Shown in pieces: positions 1,003 through 49,600 of a DNA stretch of 61,799 bases (its first letter is position 1; each line of letters begins with the position of its first letter). Position numbers and translations under genes: made by a program. Location: NCBI GenBank assembly GCA_023382755.1, contig JAHDWR010000001.1, positions 1 to 61,799 on the forward strand. Direction: 5' to 3'. The stretch comes from Dehalococcoidia bacterium. GTDB lineage: Bacteria; Chloroflexota; Dehalococcoidia; Tepidiformales; Tepidiformaceae. The notes under the pieces were generated by a model. That model was not told where the DNA came from and searched no databases. It saw only the letters and a program-made list of their open reading frames with translations.

Positions 1003-1260
1003 CTACATTAGGCGTTGCTGGCGCGACCCAGATTCCGAACCAAGGGCGGCGTCGGTGACTCCCGATGCCGCTTGACTGGCGATCCAGGCGTCGAGCGACG
1101 TCCGCGGGACACGGATTACTCTACCCAGTCGGACGCAAGGAAGCTCCCGTCGCGCCACCAGCTCATAGGCGAGGTTGCGCGAAATGCGGAGCAGCTTCGC
1201 GGCCTCCGGCACTGTCAGCAGGTCGGACTCGTGGCCGTTGTAGCTTGCATGATCGTTCAT
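1003..1260 (-). CDS. xis: Excisionase-family helix-turn-helix DNA-binding protein
   Basis: ...DLLTVPEAAKLLRISRNLAYELVARRELPCVRLGRVIRVPRTSLDAWI matches the excisionase/MerR-like HTH pattern. I chose the start at MNDHASYNGH (ATG at 1260), which overlaps the stop of the upstream gene; the track ORF extends to 1338. Confidence 0.75.
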   Translation of the reverse strand: MNDHASYNGHESDLLTVPEAAKLLRISRNLAYELVARRELPCVRLGRVIRVPRTSLDAWIASQAASGVTDAALGSESGSRQQRLM

Positions 1261-3026
1261 CGTCGAACCTCCAGTGAGTACTCGTGCTCGGCCGACCCGG
1301 GCCATCGCGTTCGGTGCTGCTGAGAGTGGGTGCGCCACACCTCCCCAAATGGTCCGAGCCGATCGAGAAGCGATGCGGTGGTGGTCATGAGATGGTCGTT
1401 GGACTGTTCAGTGGTCGCCAGCTCAACGCGCCACACGAGCTCTTCGCGTTGGGGCGTCGTGGTGACAAAGAGCAGGGTCGGCGGGTCGTTCCCACGGACC
1501 CGCTGCGCCCGGAAGTACTCGGTGTAGCGAACGAGCTTGAAGGCTATGACCTGGAGCCGCTCGGTGCCGCGGTCCCATTCGAGGAAGAATTGTTGCGCGC
1601 AGCTATTGGCAATGACCGTGCCGCCGCCGTCGGGCCGCAGCCACCGGCGAGATCCCGGGGCATCGAGCCTGACTGCAGATTCAGCCGCGTTGAGCCAGGT
1701 CACGAGCCGGGGTCCACCGCCGCGCACATGGCGCAACCAGCTCACGAAGAAGCTGTTTGTGCCCACCGTGTGCTCGAACTGGTGGAGCAGGGTCGGCACG
1801 CGTCCGCCGTGCGCGCCAGGTAGGGCTGTGACCGACGAGTGACGGGCGTACCGTCGCACGGGCACCTCGTCTCGGGCCGCCAGCAACCCCAATGCGGTGG
1901 GTGTGAGGCAGTAGTGAGGCGGTGCGGTCGTGCCAAACGTTGCGATCAGCCCGTTCGTCAGCGCTCGCTCGAGGGCGAGGGTCGCGACGCGCGGCTGAAC
2001 CTGGAGCACGGTCGCCAGCTCGGTCTCGGTGAGGAGCGGATGCCGGCCCAGGCAATCGAGTAGCCGCTTCTCGACTTCCGAGGTCATCAGCGACAGCGCC
2101 GCAAATAGCTCCAGGCGGGAAGCGCTGCGGCGGTCCCTTGCGGTCTCCTGTGCCCAACGGTGGAGGGGTGTCGCCCGGTCGGTCGCCTCACTCGGACAGC
2201 TGGCGAGCCGCAGCGGGTGTGGTGGAGAGTACTTGGTCGGGGCCGGCTTGACGCCGAGTCGCTCTATCAGGGTCGCCCGACTGGAGCCATCGGCCGGCCG
2301 CCAGTGCGGACCATCCGGGCGGTCTCCAAGGCTAGCCCGGTTTGCCATGAGGACGGGCAGCGGCGGAAGCCGGCGCCGGTCGGCGGAGGCAAGCACGTGC
2401 TGGGACCAGGCGTCTTCCCGGGCGGGACCGGGGCAGAGAATCAGCACTGGCGGAACGTCGCCGGTCCCCCATCGCTGGGGTCCCTCCCGAAACCGGTACC
2501 AGCCCGCGACGAGGGTCGCGCGGTGGGCGGACGGCGCGCCCGCCCGATCGACGAAGACGAAGAACGGCGCATGGGCTGTGCCGATCCGAAAGGACCCGAA
2601 GGCGTGGACGCCTGGCGGCCACCACGCATCGGCGGACCTGCTCCTGGGGAGCGTCCAGAGGTCGGCGAGTCCGGCGTCGGCGGTGCGGCGCGACGCAGTG
2701 ACCAGGCCGGCAGCAAAGACGTTGAGCGCGACGGTCGCTTCAAGGCTTGCCAGTCGTCGAAAAATGTCACGCGCATTGAGGGGGAGCGAGACCTGCTTCC
2801 GAGTCGCGGTCTGGCGCCGAGCCCACTCGGTCAGGACATAGAGACGGGTTGAGGCCATCTCAGGCGACGACGGCGTGATTGAGTCGACTTGCCCCGCCCG
2901 CGCCAGCTCGCGTAGGGCTGTTTCGACGTCTGGCGCAGGTGAGCCGGTCAGGAGGGCAAGATCATCCACTGTGAGGAACGGAAGCCGCGCGAGCCAGTTG
3001 AGCAGATTGACAGTTGGCACGGTCAT
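1257..3026 (-). CDS. Replication-relaxation (Replic_Relax) family protein, double length, with two winged-helix-like segments
   Basis: wHTH-like LTVDDLALLTGSPAPDVETALRELARAGQV and LLTETELATVLQVQPRVATLALERALTNGLI. The C-terminal block LHQFEHTVGTNSFF...LRPDGGG...FFLEWDRGTERLQVIAFKLVRYTEYF resembles the family signature. Recognised by memory only, no HMM run. Confidence 0.55.
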   Translation of the reverse strand: MTVPTVNLLNWLARLPFLTVDDLALLTGSPAPDVETALRELARAGQVDSITPSSPEMASTRLYVLTEWARRQTATRKQVSLPLNARDIFRRLASLEATVALNVFAAGLVTASRRTADAGLADLWTLPRSRSADAWWPPGVHAFGSFRIGTAHAPFFVFVDRAGAPSAHRATLVAGWYRFREGPQRWGTGDVPPVLILCPGPAREDAWSQHVLASADRRRLPPLPVLMANRASLGDRPDGPHWRPADGSSRATLIERLGVKPAPTKYSPPHPLRLASCPSEATDRATPLHRWAQETARDRRSASRLELFAALSLMTSEVEKRLLDCLGRHPLLTETELATVLQVQPRVATLALERALTNGLIATFGTTAPPHYCLTPTALGLLAARDEVPVRRYARHSSVTALPGAHGGRVPTLLHQFEHTVGTNSFFVSWLRHVRGGGPRLVTWLNAAESAVRLDAPGSRRWLRPDGGGTVIANSCAQQFFLEWDRGTERLQVIAFKLVRYTEYFRAQRVRGNDPPTLLFVTTTPQREELVWRVELATTEQSNDHLMTTTASLLDRLGPFGEVWRTHSQQHRTRWPGSAEHEYSLEVRR

Positions 3027-5560
3027 GTGTTCGCCCCCTTCCGGCCGCGATGCTCGTTGCGCCGCTCGCTTGGCGGATCCTGTATGGCGGTCAGCTGAAG
3101 TTGGTGGGCGCCGGTGCTGGGCCGTAACGTCGTGAGCATCTCTGCGACCTGAGGCGGCACCTGTTTGCCGGTGCCGAGCGCTCGCGCGGCCAGGATCTGG
3201 TCAACCTGCCGGGCAACTTCCTCGCGCGGGCGCCCGAATCGCGCGGCCGACTCCAGGGCGATCGCCGCGATCCGCGATGGGTCGAGCGGAGCAGGCGGGT
3301 CGAGGCGCAGCGAGAAGGCCGGATGGCGGTGACCGCCGGAGGACCAGCGTGCGTAGCACTCGTAGTCGTCGAGGGAGACGAGGTCATCGACCTCGAGGTC
3401 GTGTCCGAGCTCCGGGGCCAGGTAGCGGGCATCCTCGGCACTTACCTGGAACACGGTCAGGCTGTCGAGGTTGGCGAAGATGGTCGGGCGCAGCTCGCGG
3501 TCGATCGCGTCGAGCCTGGCGAGGGACTGGGTCACGAGGACGAACGAAGCCCCGTACTTGCCGAGCTCACTCATCATGCGCGGGTAGTCGGCCCCTCCAA
3601 GCGTGCTCGATTCGTCGATCAGGGCCACCATCCGGCTGCGCTCTCCCGCCGGCAGATCGATCTGGTCTTCGACGATCAGCCCGAGGAGATTGAGGAGCGT
3701 TGCCCCGATGAGCGCCGAGCCGCCCTCGCCGAGGAGGCCGACGGCCGTGTTGACGACGAGGACGCCACCGTCGCGGAGGAGTGTGCGCGGGTTGATGGTC
3801 GACTGTGGCTGGCCGAGCGTGAGTCTGGCGGCTTCGGTGACCTCGAAGCGCCCCACCTTCGTCGTGACAGGGGTGGCGACCTGGATCTGGAAGGCGCGTC
3901 CGAGGTTGTCGTAGTTACTTCGCCACCACGACCAGAGCGTCTGGTCGGGGACCTGTGACATCACCCGTTCGCGGAAGTCCGGGCTCGTCAGCAGGGGCAC
4001 CACGTCGAGGAGCGTGTACTGCTCCTCGCGCCGTCGGACCTGGTTCGCCTGGTGAAGGCAGAGCAGCGCGGCGCGCAGGGCGCCCTCCATCCGCGGTCCC
4101 CAGTTGTCGGGCCAGAGGCGGTGGAGCATCGCTACGATGTTCTCCGCCGTCCTGTCGCGGTTGGGGAAGAGGGCGACGTCCAGGAGGTTGAGCCCAACGG
4201 GCTGCCGCCGGTCAGTGAGGTCGAGGTAGGCCGTCCGATCCTCAAGACCGGGTGGGACGACCGAGAGGACGCTCTCTGCCAGGTCCTGGTGGGGGTCGAT
4301 GACCACGAGGAGGAGGCGTTCCCGGCGTGAAGCGATCTCCTGCATGAGGTGCCCGGCGATGTGCTGGAGGAGGGTGGATTTGCCCCGCCGTGTCTTGGCG
4401 ACGAGGAGGTGGTTCCGGTAGAGCGCTCCGTGCGGCAGGTGAATGGGAACGTTCTGACCGTGGTGGCGTGACGTGCCAACTCGGCTGCCTCGGCTCGTTG
4501 CATCGCCGGCTGGGAGGAAGCGGCGTCCCCCGGGCTTCGTTGCGGCGGGCAGCCCCGATGTGAGGTCGGGAAGGTGCCAGAGCGCTGCGAGCTCGGCGGC
4601 GTTGAGCACCGGTGCGCCACGGAATGCGCCGCCTGAGGTGTCGGGTCGTAAGCCATGTTTCCTGGCCCGTCCTGGGCGGAGCCGGTTGCCGGCGGAGTGA
4701 TCGAATGCCTCGTAGGCCGCGCTTACGCGATCGCGACTGTCCTCGACGGTCTCGGCGCGGTCGCGTGGGCCGATCGCTGTCAGCTGCAGGCGCGTCGTGA
4801 ACGCGGGAAAGGCGAGCTTCTGTTCGGCAAGCGTTGCGCTCAGTGGCTCGCGGCCGCGGAGCACGCGCGACCAGACAAGAGCGCCGATCGGAAGTCCGAC
4901 GACCGCGACGGAGCCGGCAGCGAGCAGCGGAAGGTAGTCGCCGGCCTGGTACCAGTCGTAGCCCTGCATACCCGCGGCGGCCGCACCGGAGAGCGCAACG
5001 AAGGGAAGCAGGCTGGCCGCGCCGGACTCTGGACGCTCCACTGGCAGGCGCTGGCTCGACCGGCTGGCCCGCGCCTGGACGTTGGTGGCCCAACCTGGGC
5101 GGGGCGGATGTCCGACCATGACCTGCCCGACGACGCGGACATCGCCACGGGTTGCAGCCACTGCCGCCGCCAGCACGCCAGTAAGCGGGTCCCCGTGCCT
5201 GACATCCGTATCGAGGGGGAGAGCGGCCTCCCGGTCGAGATCGAGCTGGACGATCGCCGCCAGCTCATGCCCGGCGACATGAAGCGGGTCGAGATGAGGC
5301 CGGTCCTCTATCGGAACCTCGTCGAAGTCTGCTTGCGGGTAGGCCGCCCGGATCTGGCCGAGGACCGCTAATGCCGCCGCATCATCCACCGCCCGGACGT
5401 AGAACCGGAGTCCCGACTCCGTAGCCGTCCATTCCAGTGCGACATCCTGGACACCCGCCAGCCCTGCGAAGACCGTGCGTGCGCGGGAGACGGGGTCGTC
5501 GTCCCAACGCGACGGAAAGAGCTCGTAGAGGACCGTGGCTCGGTCAGGATGCCGGCGCAT
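3023..5560 (-). CDS. Type IV coupling-protein-like P-loop ATPase (TraD/TraG/VirD4-HerA superfamily) with an N-terminal membrane segment
   Basis: Walker A LLVAKTRRGKSTLLQHI. Walker B-like LLLVVIDPHQD and MVALIDESSTLGGADYPRMMSELGKYGASFVLVTQSL. Hydrophobic LLPFVALSGAAAAG...LAAGSVAVVGLPIGALVW. Start set at MRRHPDR (ATG at 5560), overlapping the primase stop; the longer track ORF to 5821 would overlap the primase by 278 nt. Confidence 0.65.
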   Translation of the reverse strand: MRRHPDRATVLYELFPSRWDDDPVSRARTVFAGLAGVQDVALEWTATESGLRFYVRAVDDAAALAVLGQIRAAYPQADFDEVPIEDRPHLDPLHVAGHELAAIVQLDLDREAALPLDTDVRHGDPLTGVLAAAVAATRGDVRVVGQVMVGHPPRPGWATNVQARASRSSQRLPVERPESGAASLLPFVALSGAAAAGMQGYDWYQAGDYLPLLAAGSVAVVGLPIGALVWSRVLRGREPLSATLAEQKLAFPAFTTRLQLTAIGPRDRAETVEDSRDRVSAAYEAFDHSAGNRLRPGRARKHGLRPDTSGGAFRGAPVLNAAELAALWHLPDLTSGLPAATKPGGRRFLPAGDATSRGSRVGTSRHHGQNVPIHLPHGALYRNHLLVAKTRRGKSTLLQHIAGHLMQEIASRRERLLLVVIDPHQDLAESVLSVVPPGLEDRTAYLDLTDRRQPVGLNLLDVALFPNRDRTAENIVAMLHRLWPDNWGPRMEGALRAALLCLHQANQVRRREEQYTLLDVVPLLTSPDFRERVMSQVPDQTLWSWWRSNYDNLGRAFQIQVATPVTTKVGRFEVTEAARLTLGQPQSTINPRTLLRDGGVLVVNTAVGLLGEGGSALIGATLLNLLGLIVEDQIDLPAGERSRMVALIDESSTLGGADYPRMMSELGKYGASFVLVTQSLARLDAIDRELRPTIFANLDSLTVFQVSAEDARYLAPELGHDLEVDDLVSLDDYECYARWSSGGHRHPAFSLRLDPPAPLDPSRIAAIALESAARFGRPREEVARQVDQILAARALGTGKQVPPQVAEMLTTLRPSTGAHQLQLTAIQDPPSERRNEHRGRKGANT

Positions 5561-6599
5561 GCTGGACCTCCTTCCCAGCGGGCCCCAGTTCGGCGACCAG
5601 CCTGAAGAACGTCTCGCGGCCGTCGGCGCTTGCGCCAAGCTCGCCGAGGTCTTTGACGCCGTCGGGGAGACGTAGAAGGCGGGCGCGGGCGCCGAGGGAG
5701 TCAGCCAGCTCGCGAGCGGCATGCTGCCCTTCGTCGTCGTTGTCGAAGACGAGCACGACTTCTGGCACGCGGTCCAGGAAGCGCAGCCGCTCGGCCCGGG
5801 CATGCGTCCCGAGCAGGGCACAGATGGGCAGGTTCCAGCTCACGCCGGTGAGATAGTCGAATGCGCCCTCGGTCACGAAGACGCGGCTCTGTCCGCGGAC
5901 GCGCTCATAGCCGAGGATGGGCTTCGGCAATGAGAGGCCGAGGTACTTCAGCCGGCGCTCGTTGAGCGCACGGCCGACCATCCAGGCGCACTCGCCCCCG
6001 CGCAGCTCAGGAATGACCACGCGCCCGGCGAGTGCCTCGTTGCCATCCTTCCGAAGCAGTCCCATCTCTGCGGCTCGCCGAAGGCTGAAACGGTGGCGGC
6101 GCAGGAAGGGCTTGAGCGCCTGCCCGTCGCTGTAGCCGAGACGGCACTCCCTGACGACCGGCATCCCGATGCCCCGGCTATCGAGGTAGCGCAGTGCCCG
6201 CTCGTTGCGACGGAGCGCCTCGTGGTAGAGGTCACAGGCCGCCGCCAGGATGAGACGGTCATCGACCGTCAGGGGAGATTCGGACGGGGCCGGCCCACGC
6301 TTGTCATCGCTCGTGGCGACGCCTTGCGGGGCCGCTTCACCCAGCAGCTCCAGGGCGCGCCGGAAGCCGACGTTCTCCTTGCGTCTCACAAAGTCGATAA
6401 CATCCCCCGAGGCCTTGCAGCCGAAGCAGAAGAAGCTCCGGGTGTTCGGGTAGACAACCAGGCTCGGGTGTTGCTCGTCGTGGAACGGGCAGCAGCCGAC
6501 GAATCGCTCGCCGCGTTGCTGGAGCTTCACGCCGTGGGAGGCGATGACCTGCTCGATGGGGTTGTGCTGCTTGACCAGCTCGACATCAACGGACGGCAT
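5544..6599 (-). CDS. DNA primase, CHC2 zinc finger plus Toprim domain (DnaG-like)
   Basis: GCCPFHDEQHPSLVVYPNTRSFFCFGCKASGDVIDFV is a CHC2 zinc finger. VFVTEGAFDYL and VVLVFDNDDEGQHAA are the Toprim E and DxD motifs. Start MPSVDVEL at 6599. Confidence 0.85.
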   Translation of the reverse strand: MPSVDVELVKQHNPIEQVIASHGVKLQQRGERFVGCCPFHDEQHPSLVVYPNTRSFFCFGCKASGDVIDFVRRKENVGFRRALELLGEAAPQGVATSDDKRGPAPSESPLTVDDRLILAAACDLYHEALRRNERALRYLDSRGIGMPVVRECRLGYSDGQALKPFLRRHRFSLRRAAEMGLLRKDGNEALAGRVVIPELRGGECAWMVGRALNERRLKYLGLSLPKPILGYERVRGQSRVFVTEGAFDYLTGVSWNLPICALLGTHARAERLRFLDRVPEVVLVFDNDDEGQHAARELADSLGARARLLRLPDGVKDLGELGASADGRETFFRLVAELGPAGKEVQHAPAS

Positions 6600-8406
6600 C
6601 ACTCGCCTCCTCGCTGTCCCGGGCAACCAATTCCGCCGGGTCTGTCGTCGCTAGCTCGTGCTCGAACGGGCTCGCCTCGATGCGCAGCGCGAGATGGTTC
6701 CCCGAGGCGAAGAACAGCCCCTCCCCCTTGCGGCAGGACAGCAGGAACTCCCGCTCCCCGGCGCTGAGCCGGAACGTGCTGGTGACGGCGTCGATCGTTG
6801 AGCTGTCCTGCCGCATCAGGAGCTGGACGGACGAGTTGGCGAGGACCGTGTGACCCTCGGCGGTCGCGAGGAAATCCTCCACGTCCTGCGTCACCGTCGT
6901 TAGCCCGAGGTAGTGCTTGCGCGCCTGCCGGGCCATCGATGCCAGGAAACGGGCGCCCTCCTCGTGCTGGATCAACGACCACGCTTCGTCGATTAGCAGC
7001 ATCCGCGGTTTGCGGCTACGGCGGACCTCGCGCCAGATGTGGTCGGCGATCAGGTAGACACCGAGGGGACGCAGGTCCGGCTCGAGGTCGCGGATGTTGA
7101 AGACGACGAAGGGCCGTTCGAGGTCGACTGAGGTCGGCGAGGAGAAGACGTTGCCGAGGCTTCCCTCGACGAAACGTTCGAGCCGGTCGGCCAGGCCGAG
7201 CGGGTCGTCGCCCTCGCGCAGGACGTCGTAGAGGTCTCTCAGCACGGGCGGCGGCTTGCCGTGCGTGGAGGGGTCGCGGGTGATCCCCGCGCGGCCGTAG
7301 GTCTCGAGGAGTGCCCGGTCGAGTGCGCCGCGCTCACGCTGGCCGAGGCTGCCCCCCCGGTCGGCGAGCATCAGGCCAAGGAGGCCCTGGAGGGCGAGGA
7401 GCCGTTCGGTCAGCGCATCGCGTGTTTCCCCGTCGCGCTCGGCACCGTGGGCAAGGTCGAAGGGGTTGATGTGGTGCGCCGAGCTTCCGGAGAGGCGGAT
7501 GTACTGCCCGCCAACGGCGTCGCAGATCCGACGGTACTCGTCTTCGGGGTCGATGATGTAGTACTCGACGCCGCGCATCAGCGCCCGGAGCGCTTCGACC
7601 TTGCAGGCGTACGACTTGCCCGCACCGCTCTTGGCGAAGACCACCTTGTTTGCGTTCTCCAGCTCCCGGCTGAATGGGTCGAAGATGACGAGTGAGTTGT
7701 TGTGGACGCTGATGCCATAGAGGATCCCGGCCTGCATCGAAAGGTGGCTCGACGTGAACGGGATCATCGTCGCCGCGCTGGTCGTGTCGAGGTTGCGGTA
7801 GCGCCCGAGGTAATCGCGGCCTGCCGGCAGGCAGGAGAGGAAGCCGGGCAGCATCTCGAACAGTGCGGCCCGCGAGGAAGCCATCATGCCGCCGAGCGCG
7901 CTCTCCACGCGGCGATGCAGGTCGTCCACGCCGGAGGTCGAGCCCGAGCGAAGACACACGTAAAGGCTAACGGAGAAGACGCGCTCCTCGCCCCGCTGGA
8001 GCGCATCCCGCAGACGTTCCACGTCCTCGTAGGCGACCTCGCGCTCGGCGCTAGCGATCTTGCCGCTGCGCGCATCGAGCAGGCGCGACGACTGAAGCTC
8101 CACCAGCTTGTGGGTGAGCCTGCGCACGGTCGTGGCGGAGTCGAGCGGGTCGACATGGATGCTCAGGTCCAGCGGCTCGTCGAAGTCGATCAGACGGGCC
8201 AGCCAGTTGGGATGGACGTAGCGCGGATAGTCGCTGAGCCCGAGCACGCGCACATAGCGGCCGTCGATGACGAGGTGCGAGCGGGAGGCCTCAATGGCAG
8301 CCGGGGCCAGGTGGTCGATGGCGGAGCGGGTGCCGAGCTCGAAACGGAGGTCGTCTGCCGACGGCTGGTGTCGGCGCGTACGGTGACGCAGTGGAAGGCT
8401 AGCCAT
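6586..8406 (-). CDS. VirB4/TrbE-type conjugation ATPase, ATPase portion only
   Basis: Walker A VVFAKSGAGKSYACK. Walker B MLLIDEAWSLIQHEEGARFLASMARQARKHYLGLTTVTQDVEDF. The upstream part GRYVRVLGLSDYPRYVHPNWLARLIDFDEPLDLSIHVDPL is typical of Gram-positive VirB4. Start MASLPLRH (ATG at 8406). Confidence 0.8.
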   Translation of the reverse strand: MASLPLRHRTRRHQPSADDLRFELGTRSAIDHLAPAAIEASRSHLVIDGRYVRVLGLSDYPRYVHPNWLARLIDFDEPLDLSIHVDPLDSATTVRRLTHKLVELQSSRLLDARSGKIASAEREVAYEDVERLRDALQRGEERVFSVSLYVCLRSGSTSGVDDLHRRVESALGGMMASSRAALFEMLPGFLSCLPAGRDYLGRYRNLDTTSAATMIPFTSSHLSMQAGILYGISVHNNSLVIFDPFSRELENANKVVFAKSGAGKSYACKVEALRALMRGVEYYIIDPEDEYRRICDAVGGQYIRLSGSSAHHINPFDLAHGAERDGETRDALTERLLALQGLLGLMLADRGGSLGQRERGALDRALLETYGRAGITRDPSTHGKPPPVLRDLYDVLREGDDPLGLADRLERFVEGSLGNVFSSPTSVDLERPFVVFNIRDLEPDLRPLGVYLIADHIWREVRRSRKPRMLLIDEAWSLIQHEEGARFLASMARQARKHYLGLTTVTQDVEDFLATAEGHTVLANSSVQLLMRQDSSTIDAVTSTFRLSAGEREFLLSCRKGEGLFFASGNHLALRIEASPFEHELATTDPAELVARDSEEASDAVR

Positions 8407-9085
8407 GCTGCTCAACCTCCTTCCAGAATCGGGTGACCACCGGCCTCGCTCCAGCACTGAGCGACGGCGCCACCTGGGAGACCTGCGAGCAGAGGCAGGC
8501 CGCCCACAGCTCCGCGAGCGCTTCGCTCCGCAGCCGCTGCGAGCTGACACCGAATGAGGTCAGTCCCTGCGCTATCTCGTGGCAACGCGCATCGAGCTGG
8601 GCGGCCGCGACGGCGAGCTGCTGCTCGTCCCGCCCGCGCGTGGCGCGCTGCCACGGCCAGCGGATCGCGACATGGCCTTCACCCTCGGTGTGCCCCGACG
8701 GCACGACGAGGTAGAAGCGCCGCTCGAGCAAGGTCCGTTCCCGGGCCAATCTCCGTACAAACATCTCGTGCTCGAGGGCGAGGCGGCGGATGGCCTCGCT
8801 GTTGGCGTGGGAGGTGACGTTGGTGCGGAATCCCGCGAGGTAGGGCTCGACGTTGGTCGGAAGGATGCGGACGAGCATCTGGACCGGATGGCTGAGGGAG
8901 TTGAGGAAGGAACGGTAGGCGGCCATCACCGCCTCCTGCTCCTCCTCGGACTTGAGCGCGAAGTTGACGCTCTGGGCCTGGATGACCGCCCGGTAGTCGC
9001 CGCCCCGGAGACAGAGCACACCCTCGACGATCTCTTCCAGCGGCAGCATCTCCTGGACGCTTCCGTGCTTGCCGTTGGTCGTCAT
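8399..9085 (-). CDS. VirB4 N-terminal-domain-like protein encoded as a separate ORF
   Basis: LPLEEIVEGVLCLRGGDYRAVIQAQSVNFALKSEEEQEAVMAAYRSFLNSLSHPVQMLV resembles the N-terminus of Tn916 Orf16/TcpF/PrgJ-class VirB4 proteins. It overlaps the ATPase ORF by 8 nt. Confidence 0.6.
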   Translation of the reverse strand: MTTNGKHGSVQEMLPLEEIVEGVLCLRGGDYRAVIQAQSVNFALKSEEEQEAVMAAYRSFLNSLSHPVQMLVRILPTNVEPYLAGFRTNVTSHANSEAIRRLALEHEMFVRRLARERTLLERRFYLVVPSGHTEGEGHVAIRWPWQRATRGRDEQQLAVAAAQLDARCHEIAQGLTSFGVSSQRLRSEALAELWAACLCSQVSQVAPSLSAGARPVVTRFWKEVEQHG

Positions 9086-9471
9086 CGCAACGTGCTCCCG
9101 CCCCGGGGGTCGAGTTCGTCCCGATCAGGCAGCAGGACCTCGAAACGCGCCTCCTCATCGACGGCCACCTCACGTGACGTGCGGACGCGCCAGACGACGA
9201 CGCGCGGGATGCTGACGTAGCGCAGGAGGACGAACGCCCAGTCCTCCAGCGAGCGGCCGGCCGGCTGCCAGAGCGAGATCGCGGCGGTCATCAACAGGAC
9301 CGTCGCCCCGGCCGCGAGACGGATGGCGAGCGGCAGAGGCGCCTCGCTCATGGCGGAGTACGCCAGGGCCAGGCCGATGATGGCTACCATCAGCTGGCGC
9401 ATCGTCAGCCCGGCAAAGGCCTTGTCCTCGATGTTGAGGTGTGTGGGGACTTCGTGGCGTTGCACGGGCAT
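9082..9471 (-). CDS. PrgI-family (VirB3-like) small membrane protein
   Basis: MPVQRHEVPTHLNIEDKAFAGLTMRQLMVAIIGLALAYSAM... followed by a second hydrophobic helix. Start ATG at 9471 preceded by GAGGAG; the track ORF to 9717 has an Arg-rich, implausible extension. Confidence 0.7.
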   Translation of the reverse strand: MPVQRHEVPTHLNIEDKAFAGLTMRQLMVAIIGLALAYSAMSEAPLPLAIRLAAGATVLLMTAAISLWQPAGRSLEDWAFVLLRYVSIPRVVVWRVRTSREVAVDEEARFEVLLPDRDELDPRGGSTLR

Positions 9472-9508
9472 CTCCTCATCGGTGTTTGAGGAAAGCGTGC
9501 TGGTCGCC

Positions 9509-9579
9509 GTTCCATGGGCGTTCCAGGATCGGGGCCGAGGCGTTCCAACTTCGGCCCTTCTGTTCGAAATCCGCTCCAA
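9509..9579 (-). promoter_or_regulatory. Array A: five phased heptamers (GTTCCAA family on the + strand, TTGGAAC in the sense of the downstream minus-strand operon)
   Basis: GTTCCAT 9509, GTTCCAG 9520, GTTCCAA 9542, GTTCGAA 9562, GCTCCAA 9573. Offsets are 11/22/20/11. The proximal copy is 38 nt from the prgI-like ATG. Spacer sequences are unrelated. Confidence 0.7.
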
Positions 9580-13529: not shown

Positions 13530-13612
13530 TTGGAACGAAACGAGAGCGAAATTGGAACAGACACCCCCCAGATTGGAATAGCCCCCTCCGAATCCTGGAA
13601 CGCTGAAGGAAC
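13530..13612 (+). promoter_or_regulatory. Array C: five phased heptamers (TTGGAAC family, sense orientation) upstream of the T4SS mating-channel operon
   Basis: TTGGAAC 13530, TTGGAAC 13552, TTGGAAT 13573, CTGGAAC 13595, AAGGAAC 13606. Offsets are 22/21/22/11. The array ends 51 nt before the ATG at 13663. Confidence 0.7.
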
Positions 13613-13662
13613 GCCAATTCGCAGTCTGACTCATCACGGCCTCCTGGCCGCTGGAGTCAGAT

Positions 13663-14895
13663 ATGCGCATCTTCGCCCTCACCGTACTTGCACTGGGATT
13701 GGCCGGCGCACTGGTGGTTGGAGCAGCCTCCGCCAGCGCGCAGGAGGCCGACGACACGCTGGACGAGCTGTCGTCGGCCGGCATCCCTCTCCTCAACAGC
13801 CCGCCTGCGCCAACCCCGCAACAGGTCCCGCCCGGCCAGCCTGGCCCGGAAGGTCAGCCGCCGCCGGATACGCTGGTCGACCTCCCGATCCCCGACCCGA
13901 CGGACTTGATCCCCAACCCCCTGGACTGGCTGCCCGGCAGCCTCAACCCCGTGAACTGGGCGAAGGACATCGTCAACGCGGTGTTCACGCTCATCGGCCA
14001 GGCGATGCTGGAGGCGATCCGCGGGTTCGTCGACTGGGCGCTGGGCATGGGAGGCTCATCGCTCAACTTCGTCACGCGCACCCCTGCCGAAGGCACCTAC
14101 GATAGCCCGACCGTCCGCAGCCTCTACGACTTCTCCCGCGCCATCGTGAACGCCGCGCTTGCGGTCGTCGTCATGTGGGGCGGCTTCAACGTCATCATTA
14201 AGGAGCACACCAGGTCGCCCTACCACGAGGCGATGGAGCTGCTTCCGCGCGTCATCCTCGCAGCGCTCGCCGCCAACCTGACGCTCGAGTTCGCGCGGAT
14301 GCTGATCGACATCAACAACGCCCTCGCCGCCGGCGTTGGCGACGTCGGCCTCCCCGGGTACGACCAGGCCACACCCTCGCAGGAGGGCCTGGCACTCATC
14401 TTCACCGCCGTCGCCTACGGCATCGTGGCGATCCTCCTGGTCTTCCAGATGCTGATGCGCCTCGCCCTGCTGGCGATGCTCATCGTCCTTGGGCCAATTG
14501 CCGCGCTGCTCTGGGTGCTGCCACAGACCCAGCAGTGGACGCGCTGGTGGACCGACCTCTTCGTGATCACCGTCTTCCAGCAGACAGTCCAGGTCATGGT
14601 CCTGGCGCTCGGCACTGCGCTGATGGTCGAGCTGACCCCCGGCAGTGTCTCCAACGCCCTTCTGACGATGCTGCTCGGTCTGGCGGTTTGCTGGCTGACC
14701 CTCAAGGTCCCCTCGCTCCTGCGCTCGGCCCGCAGCCAGGCCGGCATCACCAACGTCCTCACCTTCGCGATGGCCACCCACGCGCTTGGCGCGATGGCGG
14801 GAGCGGGTCGCGCTAGCGCTGCGGCGGGCGGCGCCGGGGCCGCTGGTGCCGGTGGTGGCGGGGCTGCTCCGCGGCCAGCAGCGGGAAGGGCCTAG
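13663..14895 (+). CDS. VirB6/TrbL-like polytopic membrane protein with a signal peptide, a Pro-rich segment and a Gly/Ala-rich tail
   Basis: Signal peptide MRIFALTVLALGLAGALVVGAASASA, then at least 6 hydrophobic helices (for example ALIFTAVAYGIVAILLVFQMLMRLALLAMLIVLGPIAALLWVL). Position next to the hydrolase and pilin genes. Confidence 0.6.
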   Translation: MRIFALTVLALGLAGALVVGAASASAQEADDTLDELSSAGIPLLNSPPAPTPQQVPPGQPGPEGQPPPDTLVDLPIPDPTDLIPNPLDWLPGSLNPVNWAKDIVNAVFTLIGQAMLEAIRGFVDWALGMGGSSLNFVTRTPAEGTYDSPTVRSLYDFSRAIVNAALAVVVMWGGFNVIIKEHTRSPYHEAMELLPRVILAALAANLTLEFARMLIDINNALAAGVGDVGLPGYDQATPSQEGLALIFTAVAYGIVAILLVFQMLMRLALLAMLIVLGPIAALLWVLPQTQQWTRWWTDLFVITVFQQTVQVMVLALGTALMVELTPGSVSNALLTMLLGLAVCWLTLKVPSLLRSARSQAGITNVLTFAMATHALGAMAGAGRASAAAGGAGAAGAGGGGAAPRPAAGRA

Positions 14896-14904
14896 GAGGA
14901 CGCC

Positions 14905-15840
14905 GTGAACACGAACCCACCCACCGGCGACATCTTCGGCAGCGTCGGTAGCGAGGGACTCAAAGTCGCGGGCGTTATCGGCGTCGTCATGCTCGCACCG
15001 ATGCTCTTCGTCATGTCCGCGCTTGGCGGCACTCCGGGCATCGCCCAGTCTCCAGCTTCCGCCGCGGCCCTCGCCGAGATTCCCGCCGACCACCTGGCCG
15101 TGATGCAACAGGTGGCTGCTGCGACGGGCATCCCCTGGCAGGTGCTCGCCGCCATCGCCAAGGTCGAATCGGGCTTCGGCGCGAACATGGGCCCGAGCTC
15201 GGCCGGCGCCCTTGGCTACTGCCAGTTCATGCCCGCGACCTGGGCCTACTACGGAGTCGACGGCGACCGCGACGGCGTGGCCGACCCCTTCAACTACCAC
15301 GACTGCCTACCCGCCGCTGCGCAGCTCCTGCTCGGCAGCGGAGCGCCCGGTGACCTCCGGCGTGCGCTCTACGCGTACAACCACTCCTGGTCCTACGTGG
15401 ACCACATCCTCAGCATCGCCACCAGTTACGGCTACCTCGACCGGGCGGGCATCCCAGCGCAGGCGGTCGCCCTGGCGCGATCCCGGCTCGGGTTGCCCTA
15501 CGTGTGGGGCGCGGCGGGGCCGGAGAGCTTCGACTGTAGCGGGCTCACCCAGTGGATCTACGCCCAGCTCGGCATCCCCCTGCCGCGCACGTCGCAAGCA
15601 CAGTTCAACGTGACGATGCCCGTCGCGCTGGAGTTCCTCCAGCCGGGCGACCTCCTCTTCTACGAGAACACCTACCCCTCCCACGAACGCATCACCCACG
15701 TCGGCATCTACGCCGGAAACGGCGTCGTGATCATGGCCACACAGCCCGGCGAGTTCGTGAAAGAGGTGTCGCTGGACAACGACTACTGGAGTCGCCACTT
15801 CGCCGGCGCCGCCCGCCCCGTGAAAGGACCGCAGGCATGA
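14905..15840 (+). CDS. Bifunctional cell-wall hydrolase: lytic transglycosylase (SLT) plus NlpC/P60 endopeptidase (VirB1/TcpG/PrgK analogue)
   Basis: SLT block LAAIAKVESGFGANMGPSSAGALGYCQFMPATW. NlpC/P60 block GLPYVWGAAGPESFDCSGLTQWIY...ITHVGIYAGNGVVI. GTG start at 14905 preceded by AGGAGGA. Confidence 0.85.
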   Translation: MNTNPPTGDIFGSVGSEGLKVAGVIGVVMLAPMLFVMSALGGTPGIAQSPASAAALAEIPADHLAVMQQVAAATGIPWQVLAAIAKVESGFGANMGPSSAGALGYCQFMPATWAYYGVDGDRDGVADPFNYHDCLPAAAQLLLGSGAPGDLRRALYAYNHSWSYVDHILSIATSYGYLDRAGIPAQAVALARSRLGLPYVWGAAGPESFDCSGLTQWIYAQLGIPLPRTSQAQFNVTMPVALEFLQPGDLLFYENTYPSHERITHVGIYAGNGVVIMATQPGEFVKEVSLDNDYWSRHFAGAARPVKGPQA

Positions 15841-16355
15841 GCGGCGGACGTGGCGTGATGGTCATCCTCGGCGGGCTCGCCGCCACCCTGCTGGTGATCG
15901 CCATCGTGAGTGGCTGGCAGGGCGCGAACCGTCTGCGTGGCCAGGGCGAGGATATGGGCGAGGTGGAAGAAGCGGCCCGGCTCTTCGTCGAGGCCTACGG
16001 GACCTTCGACTTTCGCGAGCCGGCTGCTTACCGCGAGCGTCTGCTGAGCCTCACCACCGGCGACGTACACGACGCGGTCGCCGCCTCACAGGTCGATCCC
16101 AACGCTCTCGGCCAGCAGCAGACCATGGTGACCGGAACGGTCACGATCCAGGTCACGGCCTACTCGGACACCGAGGCGACCGTGTCAGCGACCACCGAAC
16201 AGACCCGCCGCGCCGTCGACGCCACAACCGGTCAGCTGCGTGAGCAGCGGCTCCGCCAGCACGTGACCTGCCGGCTGCTTCGCATCGACGGCCGCTGGCT
16301 CGTGGCCGAGTTCCGGCTGCGGTCGGAAGAACCCCTTGAGAACACCGGCAGATAG
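15837..16355 (+). CDS. Membrane-anchored protein with a single N-terminal TM and a putative NTF2-like domain; possible VirB8 analogue
   Basis: MSGGRGVMVILGGLAATLLVIAIVSGW, then a soluble domain ending ...LLRIDGRWLVAEFRL. The ATG at 15837 overlaps the hydrolase stop (ATGA). The fold assignment is inference only. Confidence 0.45.
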   Translation: MSGGRGVMVILGGLAATLLVIAIVSGWQGANRLRGQGEDMGEVEEAARLFVEAYGTFDFREPAAYRERLLSLTTGDVHDAVAASQVDPNALGQQQTMVTGTVTIQVTAYSDTEATVSATTEQTRRAVDATTGQLREQRLRQHVTCRLLRIDGRWLVAEFRLRSEEPLENTGR

Positions 16356-45617: not shown

Positions 45618-48600
45618 CTAACGCGCGGCAGCTCTCGGCCCGGCCACTTGCTCCAGCACCTTCGTCGTCTCCGGCATCGGCTCCGCTCGCTCGTCATCGA
45701 GCGCCGCACGCAGATCCTCGATGAGCGTCTTGTACAGGCGTTTCGCGGAGTTCCGGTCGCCCGTCGCGGCGTGACACCGCATCGCTTCGCGCACGGCCTC
45801 CTCGTCGATGGGGTCCCTTTGCAGGACGGCGTCGTAGAAGCTAAGGGCGAGCTTCGGGTCACGCAGGTCACGCGCCAGCTTCGCGGCCCGGTGGGCTGCC
45901 GTGATGAACCGCTTCTGGTAGTCGCGCCGGTAGGCGTCGGCCCATTCGTAGTCTTCGTCGGCGAGGAAATCGGACGTGCAGAGTTCCAGCGCCCGCTGGT
46001 ACTCGACCAAGGCGTCAAAGCCCTGGAGGCGCTCGGCCCGCGCGAGATGTGCGTCGAAGGCGTCCACGTCTGTGCGGAAGATGCCTGTCCGAAGCGTGTA
46101 GCGCTGGCGCGCAGCGACGAGGATCTCGCCCTCGAGATCCGGGACTGCCCGGCTCAGGGTGCGACGGACGTAGTAGGCGGCGTTGGGCAGCGGGTGCCCT
46201 CCCTGGTTCTCTCCGCTTAGCCCGAGTGCCTCTGCTGCCGTATCTCGCAGGACCGGCGAGCCGCCGTGGGCGAGAAGGTAGGCGAGCAGCTCCCGCGCCT
46301 TCTGGATCGACCAGCCATCGACCTCTCCGGCGTCTGTCTCGACACGGAACGTCCCAAAGAGACGCGCCCGGAACACGGGACCATCCTCGCTGTCCGACTC
46401 CCCGTCGGTGCCATCGAGCGGGAGCGATGCCTGTCTGTCCGCGGACTTGGGAGGCATGGCGTCCGGCTCCTCGAGAACCCTCACCGCCTCTTCCGGATGG
46501 GTCTCGTTCCACGATAGAGGGGCTGCCAGATCGGTGGCATCAGTGGACGCGTAGCCGTCCGCGAACCGTTCTTCGTCGATCTCCGGCCAGGTTTCCGATG
46601 GGGCGTGGCCGTTGTGAGGTGCTGACGATGTCGGGGACTCGGGCGTCGCAGGCACGGGCGTTGCCGTATTCGCGCGAGGGCGGTGCGCAACCTGCCGCCG
46701 GACCACGACAGGCTCCAGGTGGAGCGGAGGCAGCTGAGGCGGGGTCAGCGTGATCATGCCGGGCTCCCCGGACTGCTCGCCTTCGCCGAAGACCACACTG
46801 GCTCCGAAAGAATGCCGCGTGTCGGCGGCCTCGACCAACTCGGCGAAGGCGATCACGAAGATACCTCGCCCTGGACCCTGCCGAAGGATGCCTTCCATCT
46901 CAGCAACGGTGCTGGCTGGCTCGGGGTTCGGCCCTACCAGCGTCAGGAGCGCAGGCGCTTCCTGGTCCCCCTCGCGCGCGAACAGCATGCTCTCGAGCCA
47001 TCGGGCGAAGGCCGCAGGCGAGTCCGCGGGCGGACCGGCGTCGGCTGGACCTGGCAACAGCCCCAGGCAGTCGCTGAGGGAAGCCCCCGCAGCCTCGTCC
47101 GCGACTGCGGTGATCGTGCCTTCTGGATGGAGCGAATCGAGGGTGGCGAACCAGCTCGTGAGGAGGTCGCGTCCCTCCAGCCGTCCACCAACGACGAGGA
47201 CGCTGCCGACGGCTGCGAGGTTGAGGTAGTGGATGCCGGAATCCGAAGCACCGACCGGCACGAGGAGTGGCTGATGGCTGTCGCCTGTATCACCGAGGAG
47301 CGCCGCCGCCAGCTGATTCATGCGCGAGAGCTTCAGCCGGACGGCCGTCGCCCCCAGGAGCTCGCCATCGACGGCGCATCCGAGCTGGCGGCCGAGTGCG
47401 TAGCGAGATTCGACCAGCGCCTCGGCATCGCCAGGCGGGCAGTCGAGCGTGAACTCCAGGTAACGGTCGGATTCGCGGGCGAGGACGATGGCCGTGGCGG
47501 CGAAATCAAGCTCCGCCAGTGCCGACAGGAGCGCGGTACTCGTCGCCAGCACGCGGGCCGCATCGCCGGACCCTGCTGGCCGGCGTTCGGGGCGTCCGTT
47601 GGAGTGCCAGGCCCGGCGCCGCGCTCGTCGAAACACCAGCAGCATCGCCGCCCCACCGACCGTTATCACGGCTGCCGCGGCCACGACTCCACCGCCGGGT
47701 GTCGGCACCGATGGCAGGGAGGGCCGAAGCTCCGGCCCGGCGCCGTCGTCATCCGCTGGAGCGATGGGGCCACCCGGGATCACCGTGGGTGTTGGCGTGG
47801 GGACGACCGCTGTGGGTTCCGGGGTCGGTGGAACAGGGGAGGGTTCGGGCGTCGGTTCCGGCTCCGGCGTCCCACCGGGGCCGTCGGCCTCGGTGACGGA
47901 TTCTGGCTCAGCGTTGCTGACGTCCTGCGGAAGTTCCAGCTGCCAGCCGGCATAGATGAGATTCGGGTCCACGAAGGTCCGTCCATCCGTCATCGTGCGC
48001 TGCTGGTTGAGCTTCCAGATCTCGACCCAGCGAAATCCGTCGCCGAGGAAGCGTTCCGCGATGCCCCAGAGGTGGTCGCCTCGCGCCACGGTGTAAGTAT
48101 CAGGGACGGTTTCCACCGCCACCGCTGGCGCGGCCGTTGACGGGACGGTGGCCGGTTCGGCGAACACAGCCACGTGTCTCTCAACCGGCGCCTCGACGCT
48201 TCTGCTGATCGGGGCCGCGGCTGCGATCGCAGCCGACGGCATGTGGAACGTGGCACTGACCAGGATCGTCCCGGCGAGGGCGCCATCGACCACACGGCGT
48301 ACAAGCGGGAGCGTCAGCGGGGCGGTGACGCGAAGCCCGCCCCTTGCCCATGCTGCCTGATCCGTGAGGACGGCGGCCAGGCCGAACGCGAGCCGTACCA
48401 CGATGGACAGCAGCAGGTACGCCACCACGAGCCAGGCGATGCCGGTCGTCACCGTGATGACGTCCTGGTCGCTCAGCCGGGAGCCAGTCAATACGGTCTG
48501 GATATGACTCCAGTCCGGCGTCGAGGCCAGCATGCTGGGTGGCCCGGTCATCGCCCAGAGGCCAATCGCGACCGCGATGCACGCGGCCACCAGCGCGACC

Positions 48601-48662
48601 AGGCCGAGCCATCCTCCGTCCGCCTCTTGTCCTCGACTGGTCGCGAGCTCGCGTGTACTCAT
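45618..48662 (-). CDS. Membrane-anchored LysM protein with a C-terminal SARP module (OmpR-type winged helix plus BTAD)
   Basis: N-terminal TM helices (GWLGLVALVAACIAVAIGLW, IAWLVVAYLLLSIVVRLAFGLAAVL). LysM YTVARGDHLWGIAERFLGDGFRWVEIWKLN...IYAGWQLELP. Pro-rich tract, then TM VVAAAAVITVGGAAMLLVF followed by RRARRR. SARP RARLFGTFRVETDAGEVDGWSIQKARELLAYLLAHGG...YVRRTLS...DVDAFDAHL...YEWADAYRRDY...LQRDPIDEEAVREAMRCHAATGDRNSAKRLYKTLIEDL. Confidence 0.75.
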   Translation of the reverse strand: MSTRELATSRGQEADGGWLGLVALVAACIAVAIGLWAMTGPPSMLASTPDWSHIQTVLTGSRLSDQDVITVTTGIAWLVVAYLLLSIVVRLAFGLAAVLTDQAAWARGGLRVTAPLTLPLVRRVVDGALAGTILVSATFHMPSAAIAAAAPISRSVEAPVERHVAVFAEPATVPSTAAPAVAVETVPDTYTVARGDHLWGIAERFLGDGFRWVEIWKLNQQRTMTDGRTFVDPNLIYAGWQLELPQDVSNAEPESVTEADGPGGTPEPEPTPEPSPVPPTPEPTAVVPTPTPTVIPGGPIAPADDDGAGPELRPSLPSVPTPGGGVVAAAAVITVGGAAMLLVFRRARRRAWHSNGRPERRPAGSGDAARVLATSTALLSALAELDFAATAIVLARESDRYLEFTLDCPPGDAEALVESRYALGRQLGCAVDGELLGATAVRLKLSRMNQLAAALLGDTGDSHQPLLVPVGASDSGIHYLNLAAVGSVLVVGGRLEGRDLLTSWFATLDSLHPEGTITAVADEAAGASLSDCLGLLPGPADAGPPADSPAAFARWLESMLFAREGDQEAPALLTLVGPNPEPASTVAEMEGILRQGPGRGIFVIAFAELVEAADTRHSFGASVVFGEGEQSGEPGMITLTPPQLPPLHLEPVVVRRQVAHRPRANTATPVPATPESPTSSAPHNGHAPSETWPEIDEERFADGYASTDATDLAAPLSWNETHPEEAVRVLEEPDAMPPKSADRQASLPLDGTDGESDSEDGPVFRARLFGTFRVETDAGEVDGWSIQKARELLAYLLAHGGSPVLRDTAAEALGLSGENQGGHPLPNAAYYVRRTLSRAVPDLEGEILVAARQRYTLRTGIFRTDVDAFDAHLARAERLQGFDALVEYQRALELCTSDFLADEDYEWADAYRRDYQKRFITAAHRAAKLARDLRDPKLALSFYDAVLQRDPIDEEAVREAMRCHAATGDRNSAKRLYKTLIEDLRAALDDERAEPMPETTKVLEQVAGPRAAAR

Positions 48663-49600
48663 TGCCGCTGCCCCGTCAGCACGGACTGGAGCTGCTGGAC
48701 CGGGTAGTCATCACTGAACAACCGGGTGATCGGGTCGAGCGGTTCCCACGCGCCGCCGTTGACGCGGTACCGGGCCGCGAATGTGACCTCCACCGTGATG
48801 CTGTAGGCGCCGCCGGCCGCCAGCGACGACTGTTCATAGACGTGGCGGATGTCGCTCTCAGCGGGATAACGCTGCCCGAGTGATGTCGTCTCAGCGGTCG
48901 TCCCATCGCCGAAGGACCAGCGGTAGACCAGCGGCTCGATCTCCACGTCAACCGTGACACCGGGAAGCGCGTCCGATGAGCTGATGGCCGAGCCGTCGTA
49001 GCCATCGATCCAGAACCAGGACGACAGTGCGACGAGACCGGTCGCCGGGTTGGCTTCGATGGCGATATCCGGGATTGGGAGATGGTTAAGGAGTTCGAGG
49101 GCGACGGCCACCGGGTCCACGCCGTCTTCGTCAACGAAAACCACCTGGACGTTCCCGCCAGCTGGCGTGCCCACCGGAATCCAAATGAAAGCGAAGAAGC
49201 CGTCATCGCAGCTCACGCTGCCGAAGACGTGGTCGGGATGAGCTGCCTGCTCAGCCTGGTACCAGGAAGAGTTCGAGAGCACGATTCCGATGTTCTGAGC
49301 GCTGATGCGGCAGGAGCGCGAGTTGCCGGTGCTGACCGACGTATTAGAAGTTGAACCCGGTGCACTTCCCGGCGACGCTTGCGTCACGCGGATGAACACC
49401 GTTACGCCATTCGGTCCAGACTGCACCGTGGCGGCTGCCGTTTTGGAATTGCTGCGAGGCGTTCCGGCACCACCCGGAGTCGGGTCGTCCGCCAGCACGG
49501 CCAGGGGAACGACGAGAGCCAAAGCCGCGGCCGCCAGGCACACCAACCACCTGCGAGTGCCCCGGGCTAGTTCTGCCTGATGCTCCGGATGACTATCCAT
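48659..49600 (-). CDS. Secreted protein with a C-terminal PKD-like domain
   Basis: Signal-like RRWLVCLAAAALALVVPLAVLA. PKD-type motif YRWSFGDGTTAETTSLGQRYPAESDIRHVY. Confidence 0.55.
   Translation of the reverse strand: MDSHPEHQAELARGTRRWLVCLAAAALALVVPLAVLADDPTPGGAGTPRSNSKTAAATVQSGPNGVTVFIRVTQASPGSAPGSTSNTSVSTGNSRSCRISAQNIGIVLSNSSWYQAEQAAHPDHVFGSVSCDDGFFAFIWIPVGTPAGGNVQVVFVDEDGVDPVAVALELLNHLPIPDIAIEANPATGLVALSSWFWIDGYDGSAISSSDALPGVTVDVEIEPLVYRWSFGDGTTAETTSLGQRYPAESDIRHVYEQSSLAAGGAYSITVEVTFAARYRVNGGAWEPLDPITRLFSDDYPVQQLQSVLTGQRQ

Follow-up and report, generated by a model that had tools for sequence, protein, structure and literature searches.

Why would a row of short, evenly phased repeats stand in front of the conjugation genes of a Dehalococcoidia bacterium? 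We met this arrangement in a 61,799-nucleotide stretch of DNA (contig JAHDWR010000001.1 of assembly GCA_023382755.1, positions 1 to 61,799; hereafter the window) from a host of the phylum Chloroflexota (Dehalococcoidia). The window carries what looks like an integrative and conjugative element (ICE) with a type IV secretion system (T4SS), DNA-processing genes and a Tad pilus locus. A sequence-only reading of this DNA had pointed to heptamers at 9509-9573 as putative protein-binding sites that share their logic with an array in the tad locus. Our comparison of sequences supports this idea through the nonrandomness of the repeats, their geometry, their register with a -10-like hexamer and a regulator that matches them. 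We consider it probable that the repeats are SARP boxes, bound by a 1014-aa regulator encoded by the element itself and driving three operons. In the best reading, the regulon would cover the T4SS, DNA-processing and Tad pilus genes. The repeats form three arrays:

9509..9579, minus strand: array A, before a prgI-like gene; five heptamers, in sense from distal to proximal TTGGAGC, TTCGAAC, TTGGAAC, CTGGAAC and ATGGAAC; spacings 11/20/22/11.
53425..53557, minus strand: array B, between tadA and tadB; eight heptamers, five of them exact; sense spacings 21/11/30/11/20/22/11.
13530..13612, plus strand: array C, before trbL; TTGGAAC, TTGGAAC, TTGGAAT, CTGGAAC and AAGGAAC; spacings 22/21/22/11.

On the plus strand, the copies of array A read GTTCCAT (9509), GTTCCAG (9520), GTTCCAA (9542), GTTCGAA (9562) and GCTCCAA (9573), in a single orientation and at offsets of 11/22/20/11. 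The earlier positions, offsets and orientation stand, but not the claim of five GTTCCAA copies: only the one at 9542 is exact, and the other four are each one base off. The exact copies of array B begin at 53425, 53436, 53458, 53478 and 53489. Their offsets equal those of array A, as had been noticed. With the one-mismatch copies at 53519, 53530 and 53551, this array contains three 18-nt pair units separated by 41 and 53 bp, which is four and five helical turns. Array C runs opposite to A and B, with plus strand copies at 13530, 13552, 13573 and 13595 and a fifth, AAGGAAC at 13606, that has two mismatches. The sense-strand unit is TTGGAAC, followed by G in 14 of the 18 units, and each array lies in sense orientation immediately upstream of an operon start. 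Outside these three operon starts, the window has no comparable cluster.

Such clustering is not expected by chance, as the sequence-only reading had supposed. The exact heptamer occurs 11 times in the window, against 3.59 ± 1.89 in shuffled sequences, none of which reached 11 (100 shuffles); 8 of the 11 fall within arrays A, B and C. In 300 Markov shuffles, the largest same-strand cluster within 80 bp, allowing one mismatch, never exceeded three copies. By the same measure array A has five, array B five (eight over the whole array) and array C four. Pairs of heptamers 11 bp apart with NANNNT in register number four, against 0.07 expected.

The pair nearest the gene is spaced by 11 bp in all three arrays. 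Past it, each array has the same arrangement: proximal heptamer, 9 nt, then a -10-like hexamer CAnnnT, or equivalently the 8-nt unit TTGGAACG, 8 nt and CAnnnT. The hexamers are:

9494..9499, minus strand: CACGCT, 9 nt past the proximal heptamer of array A.
13622..13627, plus strand: CAGTCT, 9 nt past the proximal heptamer of array C.
53410..53415, minus strand: CAGGAT, 9 nt past the proximal heptamer of array B.

The trinucleotide GCA, seen earlier 8 nt after the proximal heptamer in each array, is the edge of this hexamer. Across 36 nonidentical related promoters, NANNNT is in register in 35, and the sole exception is a spurious actinobacterial match. Transcription is predicted from the sequence to start about 7 nt past CAnnnT, near 13634, 53403 and 9487, with 9486-9488 as the likely range behind array A. 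A Shine-Dalgarno (SD) sequence and a start codon follow 15 to 35 nt past each hexamer. From the arrays to the ATG codons the distances are 38 nt (9509 to 9471) and 37 nt (53425 to 53388), as had been counted. The near match between them is less telling than it was taken to be. The SD sequence GAGGAG (9472-9477) abuts the first ATG of the prgI-like open reading frame (ORF), and a related element, L012, has an ATG at the second position, so the gene more probably starts at GTG 9465. Part of the match thus comes from which start codon is chosen, and the meaningful fixed distance is that from array to -10-like element, not from array to ATG. Promoter and terminator scans found no sigma-70 consensus promoter and no terminator at arrays A, B or C. 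The lack of such a promoter fits an activator-dependent promoter, yet it is not positive evidence for one.

Direct repeats at this position call to mind the SARP activators. In the published rule, a SARP box consists of direct repeats with a spacing of 11 or 22 bp; it overlaps the -35, and 8 bp separate its 3' repeat from the -10 (PMC10936776). The afs box has two 11-bp repeats, the first 8 bp of which are contacted; its center is at -29.5, the -35 that it overlaps is a poor one, and afsS has CACTGT as its -10 (PMC10936776). The arrays resemble this closely. Heptameric direct repeats stand in one orientation (five copies in A, eight in B and five in C), with offsets of 11, 20, 21 and 22 bp in the arrays and likewise in relatives. 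The predicted -10 is 8 bp away in all three arrays. The box takes the place of a -35 in a poor core promoter, where the next heptamer is 20 nt from the hexamer, and its implied center of about -28.5 agrees with the afs box within about 1 bp.

A candidate regulator is encoded by the last gene of the operon behind array B:

45618..48662, minus strand: candidate regulator of 1014 aa with LysM, an FtsK-like fold and a SARP domain.

Its C-terminal quarter resembles SARPs in sequence (LFGTFRVE...W...KARELLAYLL...NAAYYVRRTL, then BTAD). The SARP domain consists of a winged helix-turn-helix (wHTH) at about 765-860, directly followed by BTAD at 864-1005 (Pfam PF03704, E=1.1e-08), which is present in 16 of 16 homologues; Trans_reg_C (PF00486) is matched in 11 of the 16. 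An AlphaFold model built with 64 homologues has pLDDT values of 86-95 over residues 760-1010. In Foldseek, the PDB entries that match the C terminus best are EmbR and the SARP domain of AfsR, the latter as seen in the transcription initiation complex (8k60_I, TM score 0.74; 8hvr_I, 0.73). Homologues carry the JGI label 'DNA-binding SARP family transcriptional activator'. In the N-terminal third, LysM (190-245) lies between hydrophobic helices; a proline-rich linker and a further hydrophobic helix (about 325-350) come next. Residues 365-655 adopt an FtsK/TcpA/EccC-like P-loop fold in which GxxxxGK[ST] is absent and GRLEGRD stands in the Walker A place, so that this middle domain is probably a pseudo-ATPase, which might serve in oligomerization or in contact with the T4SS. 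Taken as a whole, the protein resembles a sensor anchored in the membrane whose output is a SARP domain; in this predicted topology, LysM would lie on the extracytoplasmic side and supply the signal.

The nearest well-described counterpart is AfsR at afsS of Streptomyces coelicolor (PDB 8k60, 8hvr). There, too, two direct repeats spaced by 11 bp stand at the -35, the first 8 bp of the repeat are conserved, and 8 bp separate the box from a weak CAnnnT-type -10; the C-terminal 250 residues of our candidate superpose on the AfsR SARP domain. The differences are as plain. The repeat is TTGGAACG here, and there are five to eight of them rather than two. The SARP domain is C-terminal (about 760-1010), behind the membrane, LysM and FtsK-like parts, not N-terminal with additional domains behind it, as in the SARPs of PMC10936776 and, with NOD and TPR domains, in AfsR itself. 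The phylum is Chloroflexota, and the putative targets serve conjugation and the pilus. Homologues and loci nearest to ours come from Dehalococcoidia, Thermoflexaceae and Anaerolineae metagenome-assembled genomes (MAGs), not from actinobacteria, and the neighboring genes are those of tad and the T4SS, not of secondary metabolism.

ActII-ORF4 and DnrI also have heptameric direct repeats with 4-nt spacers over the -35, often in threes, and the regulator lies within its own cluster. They are soluble actinobacterial proteins of about 270 aa from antibiotic clusters, with TCGAG-type heptamers, whereas ours is a 1014-aa multidomain protein of a mobile element. In design, the regulator also recalls ToxR, CadC and TcpP, membrane-bound winged-helix activators that join an extracytoplasmic sensor and an OmpR-type DNA-binding domain in one polypeptide. 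Sensor and DNA-binding domain would be joined here as well, with DNA held at the membrane, given the predicted topology. In those proteins, however, the wHTH is N-terminal and there is one membrane helix, while here it is C-terminal with BTAD, and there are several helices, LysM and an FtsK-like part. Neither the cis grammar nor the DNA-binding module is new in kind. Literature searches returned no description of this system, whether of Chloroflexota SARPs, a T4SS/relaxosome/Tad regulon, the number of repeats or the architecture of the regulator. The nearest published trace is a 'LysM, BTAD' ORF in the Tad locus of a Cutibacterium acnes plasmid, pIMPLE-HL096PA1 (PAGK_2369, PMC3666418). This plasmid and a Micrococcus luteus plasmid (NZ_CP043850.1, locus L158) share with our window the order rcpC-tadZ-tadA-tadB-tadC-flp-tadE...-LysM/BTAD on a mobile replicon. 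The C. acnes paper did not address the function of that ORF and proposed sigma/anti-sigma control (PMC3666418). In the M. luteus plasmid, tadA and tadB abut, unlike in the window, and no phased array was found in L158.

We scanned genomes with an alignment of the regulator, which gave 78 loci, and metagenomes with VirB4, which gave 79. Full-length matches to the regulator come almost all from Chloroflexota MAGs; the remainder of the 78 loci are mainly partial, N-terminal matches in Actinomycetota. The loci with full-length matches keep the order rcpC...tadA-[gap]-tadB...regulator. The synteny of the regulator and the position of array B are kept in all loci with enough flank, and array B is conserved at the same place in L001-L034. 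In L001-L010, whose regulators are 68-86% identical to ours, the arrays at this position are TTGGAAC with offsets of ...11/20/22/11. More distant elements have other heptamers before tadB:

L012: TAGGAAC.
L011, L019: TTGGAGT.
L017, L018, L021, L023, L024: TTGGACy.
L029: CAGGAAC/TTGGAAC.
L031, L034: GTGGAGT.

Array A likewise recurs in L079-L085, L121 and L128, and its geometry appears with other heptamers in L012, L086 (rTGGACs) and L089 (TTGGAGT), which bears out the expectation of conservation in related elements. In L086 and L089, the 20/22/11 layout is followed by GCAnnnT before prgI. Relatives of array C are found in L084, L085, L121, L012 and L086. In colinear elements, the array is found before trbL, with which it moves, and prgI lacks one. 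Spacers are not conserved between arrays A, B and C, as the sequence-only reading said. Among close relatives of array A the difference is small: spacer columns are 84% identical and heptamer columns 93%, and these relatives are too similar to be informative. We take the argument to be carried by the divergent elements and not by the close relatives of array A.

What the divergent elements show is that the heptamer changes between elements and agrees within each. The window has TTGGAAC in three of three arrays, L012 has TAGGAAC in three of three and L019 has TTGGAGT in two of two. L029 has yWGGAAC in both of its arrays, L086 has rTGGACs in both, and L022 has TTGGACT. Through these changes between elements, the 20/22/11 spacing is kept, and dozens of related elements show this layout. 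Because the heptamer varies between close elements and is uniform within each, the factor that reads it would be encoded by the element. L012 points to which one. Its VirB4 and TrbL are 90% identical to those of the window, but for the SARP regulator identity falls to 53%, and L012 has a different heptamer; the heptamer thus appears to track the SARP regulator, not the transfer genes. The recognition-helix segment of the regulator, at residues of about 823-834 in the protein of the window, differs by heptamer class as well (HPLPNAAYYVRR, HQLSNAAYYLRR, HMMDNAATTARK).

Several tad-regulator modules can sit in one genome. The Thermoflexaceae MAG H3_CFX4 has L001 and L005 on one 1.5-Mb contig, plus L008, and MAG FeB_14 has L007 and L010. 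These co-resident modules all use TTGGAAC, though their regulators are only 68-84% identical to that of the window, and cross-talk between co-resident elements is possible. Among the actinobacterial loci (L036-L078), a de novo array scan gave hardly anything above noise; L045, L069 and L076 hold weak candidates, and we therefore do not claim arrays outside Chloroflexota.

Could another protein read the same sites? Phased direct repeats are bound by other winged-helix proteins, among them OmpR/PhoB regulators, whose direct repeats are likewise phased at 11 bp and which can take the place of the -35. At the pho boxes of PhoB and PhoP, arrays of several units load cooperatively. A host response regulator of this type might then bind the arrays, as activator or repressor, and the SARP protein would have other targets. 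Geometry of 11 bp alone does not separate the two families, which share the phase, the substitution for the -35 and the use of several units. We nevertheless regard this alternative as unlikely. Here BTAD is present and a receiver domain or partner kinase is not; no receiver-domain or other Trans_reg_C protein is found among the window ORFs scanned, though a host-encoded one could lie beyond the window. A heptamer that varies between close elements while staying uniform within each speaks for a factor of the element. The exact 8 bp to a CAnnnT -10 is the SARP signature (PMC10936776). Within the element, the only other conserved DNA-binding candidate is an HTH_17 protein (1003-1338) of the Xis/AlpA type, which could oligomerize on the repeats as a recombination directionality factor or activator, given that proteins of the Xis type can assemble head to tail into filaments on direct repeats (RdfS is a related case; PMC11963761). 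It is conserved in the element, but L083, L086 and L092 all keep its HTH segment LLRISRNLAYELV despite heptamers of TTGGAAC, rTGGACs and yTGGACT, and its helix ISRNLAYELV is invariant across elements with different heptamers. Nothing links this family to an 8-bp distance from the -10, no attachment site lies at the arrays, and such a role is highly improbable.

The remaining alternatives do not involve an activator of this kind. Every heptamer variant keeps GGA as its core, and array B, placed within an operon, is probably reached by read-through transcription from tadA, so the repeats might act as RNA, in long 5' leaders or in the tadA-tadB intercistronic RNA, where a CsrA-like protein would control translation or stability. 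Phasing at 11 and 20-22 bp and a distance to NANNNT fixed to the single base (35/36) are properties of DNA, however. Arrays A and C have no co-oriented gene upstream, the repeats stop about 25 nt before the SD sequence without overlapping it, and the whole window has no match to an Rfam family at gathering thresholds; control at the level of RNA is very unlikely. GGAAC is the classic core of the -35 of extracytoplasmic function (ECF) sigma factors, and it is contained in TTGGAAC. A 313-aa ORF (24078-25019) has a faint Sigma70_r4_2 match (E=0.0096), and the additional copies would then be incidental duplications. We give this almost no credence: TTGGAGT, TTGGACT and GTGGAGT of other elements lack AAC with the geometry unchanged, five to eight phased copies are conserved, and there is no CGT-type -10 16-17 nt downstream. 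The hexamer, 9 nt from the proximal heptamer and 20 nt from the next, fits no normal -35/-10 spacer. The idea that the repeats are iterons, centromere-like partition sites or accessory sites of the relaxosome merits equally little. It draws on the fact that phased direct repeats are typical of iterons and some centromeres, and on the presence of a relaxase and a ParA/MinD-like TadZ (54858-56096). Yet the three arrays lie upstream of operon starts, in sense and in register with hexamer and SD sequence, one travels with trbL in colinear elements, and no Rep or ParB gene is adjacent.

Several observations weigh against SARP control. SARPs are described as exclusive to actinobacteria, where they control secondary metabolism, and the usual number of repeats is two or three (PMC10972967). 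Our interpretation extrapolates across phyla, and five to eight repeats exceed that norm. The 30-bp gap in array B is outside the 11/22 rule. In the regulator of the window itself, Trans_reg_C has no Pfam match even at E<=1, and a PDB sequence search with the C-terminal 262 residues returned only designed TPR proteins, not AfsR or EmbR; the wHTH is evident only through the fold and the homologues. The covariation of helix and heptamer is confounded by phylogeny, and in most metagenome loci with prgI or trbL arrays the regulator lies beyond the stretch examined. Finally, the regulator appears to be anchored in the membrane, which would require that DNA be bound there or that the domain be released.

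If SARP boxes are nevertheless what the repeats are, array A would form the upstream half of a promoter that depends on an activator. Through its C-terminal SARP domain, the 1014-aa protein would bind the TTGGAAC(G) repeats head to tail on one face of the DNA. The proximal 11-bp pair, spanning about -39 to -21, would stand in for the -35, and the dimer bound there, like AfsR at afsS, would bring RNA polymerase to the weak -10 (CACGCT), activating rather than repressing the gene. Upstream copies, 20-22 bp or two helical turns apart, could load further protomers cooperatively. Array C would let the same regulator drive the trbL/hydrolase operon, and array B the operon that runs from tadB to the regulator's own gene. 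Since this operon ends in the regulator gene, array B would mediate positive autoregulation. T4SS, DNA processing and Tad pilus of the integrated element would be switched on together.

The proximal pairs may add an order to this. The pair is perfect at tadB (53425-53442) and imperfect at prgI (CTGGAAC/ATGGAAC, 9509-9526) and trbL (CTGGAAC/AAGGAAC, 13595-13612), and the imperfection is kept in relatives. This hints at graded affinity. Because the tadB heptamers are perfect and the other two pairs consistently imperfect, the pattern suggests, by inference only, that the tadB feedback loop would fire first and that threshold-dependent induction of the transfer genes would follow. Array B also holds a tandemly duplicated 20-nt unit at 53444-53483 (ATCCGSGCCCRTTCGTTCCA, 90% identical), and its sequence suggests that the array may have grown by local duplication.

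What would this circuit control? The sequence-only reading had called the genes behind array A a DNA-processing operon. DNA-processing genes are there, but the description is incomplete, as the operon also holds T4SS genes. From Pfam searches of the window ORFs, the layout behind array A is as follows:

9082..9471, minus strand: prgI-like (VirB3-like) gene, first behind array A (Pfam PrgI, E=8.6e-07).
1003..9085, minus strand: rest of the array A operon (Pfam).
Within 1003..9085, after the prgI-like gene, minus strand: 228-aa protein (ORF).
6586-8550, minus strand: VirB4-like ATPase (Pfam).
5544-6626, minus strand: primase (Pfam).
3023-5821, minus strand: TraG-like type IV coupling protein (Pfam).
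1257-3026, minus strand: Replic_Relax relaxase (Pfam).
1003-1338, minus strand: HTH_17 protein, Xis/AlpA-like, at the end of the operon (Pfam).

Array C precedes a shorter operon:

13663..16355, plus strand: trbL operon (Pfam; synteny in L012, L022, L029 and L084-L116).
13663-14895, plus strand: trbL/VirB6-like gene (Pfam).
14905-15840, plus strand: cell-wall hydrolase with SLT and NlpC/P60 domains (Pfam).
Third gene of 13663..16355, plus strand: 267-aa protein (ORF).

The tad genes are divided by array B. Those behind it are tightly packed and run into the regulator gene at 45618..48662. For the upstream part, the motif scan found no heptamer array.

48659..53388, minus strand: tadB operon, with tadB, tadC, flp, two tadE genes, a tadG-like gene, a 180-aa protein and a 313-aa PKD-like protein (Pfam, ORFs, synteny).
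51385-51561, minus strand: flp pilin (ORF).
53546..56887, minus strand: upstream tad locus with rcpC/cpaB, tadZ and tadA (Pfam).
54858-56096, minus strand: TadZ, ParA/MinD-like (Pfam).

A tRNA scan found no tRNA in the window, and there is no integrase among the window ORFs scanned; we infer the ends of the element and its integrated state only from relatives on Mb-scale contigs.

Does the Tad pilus belong to the element at all? The tad locus is contiguous with a PrgI/VirB4/TrbL-type T4SS in L012, L022 and L029, which have no cargo block, and the two share common heptamer boxes. Because of this contiguity and the common boxes, the Tad pilus seems, from the sequences, to be part of the conjugative element, and it may act as its mating pilus. 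In the window, the T4SS and tad modules are separated by a large block (20015-45614) that resembles defense cargo and is absent as a whole from L012. Its genes include an M78-UvrD-PD(D/E)XK fusion (1150 aa), HEPN_Swt1+DUF499 (1122 aa), NADAR+DUF1156 (1226 aa), PRTase-CE, a 1398-aa sacsin-like protein, an SNF2/NOV_C helicase (1192 aa) and Hypoth_Ymh. A Gabija-like pair, a 598-aa AAA_15/OLD-type ATPase and a 495-aa UvrD-type helicase, occupies 10132-13428, in the gap that separates the prgI promoter from the divergent trbL promoter. Only about 280 bp lie between the two arrays in L012, and about 3.6 kb between the two genes in L084-L086 and L121. Because content and length of this gap differ among the window, L012, L084-L086 and L121, it looks like a hotspot for insertion of cargo.

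A broader proposal, which we hold tentatively and think less likely than not, concerns a family of Chloroflexota ICEs. A membrane-anchored, peptidoglycan-binding LysM SARP with an FtsK-like pseudo-ATPase would be its master switch, passing an envelope or contact cue directly to the SARP boxes of three operons. The Tad pilus, a Gram-positive-type T4SS (PrgI/VirB4/TrbL/PrgK-like) and the relaxosome would then come on together, and the tadB promoter would supply positive feedback. By diversifying together, heptamer and recognition helix would insulate co-resident elements from one another. If true, no SARP regulon would have been seen before outside Actinobacteria, and none in control of horizontal transfer, and a Tad pilus would here serve as the mating pilus of a Gram-positive-type T4SS.

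SARPs are regarded as actinobacterial antibiotic regulators, and here the same promoter grammar would be at work in another phylum, on a mobile element, under a regulator of unusual, sensor-like architecture. Natural specificity variants such as TAGGAAC, TTGGAGT and GTGGAGT suit swap experiments, and the motif with its geometry may be used as a metagenome marker for this element family and its promoters. The shared sites would link the Tad pilus to a Gram-positive-type T4SS, which bears on how mating contacts form without classical conjugative pili. Almost nothing is known about the control of gene transfer in Chloroflexota; defined sites and a protein domain that may bind them would make it a testable circuit.

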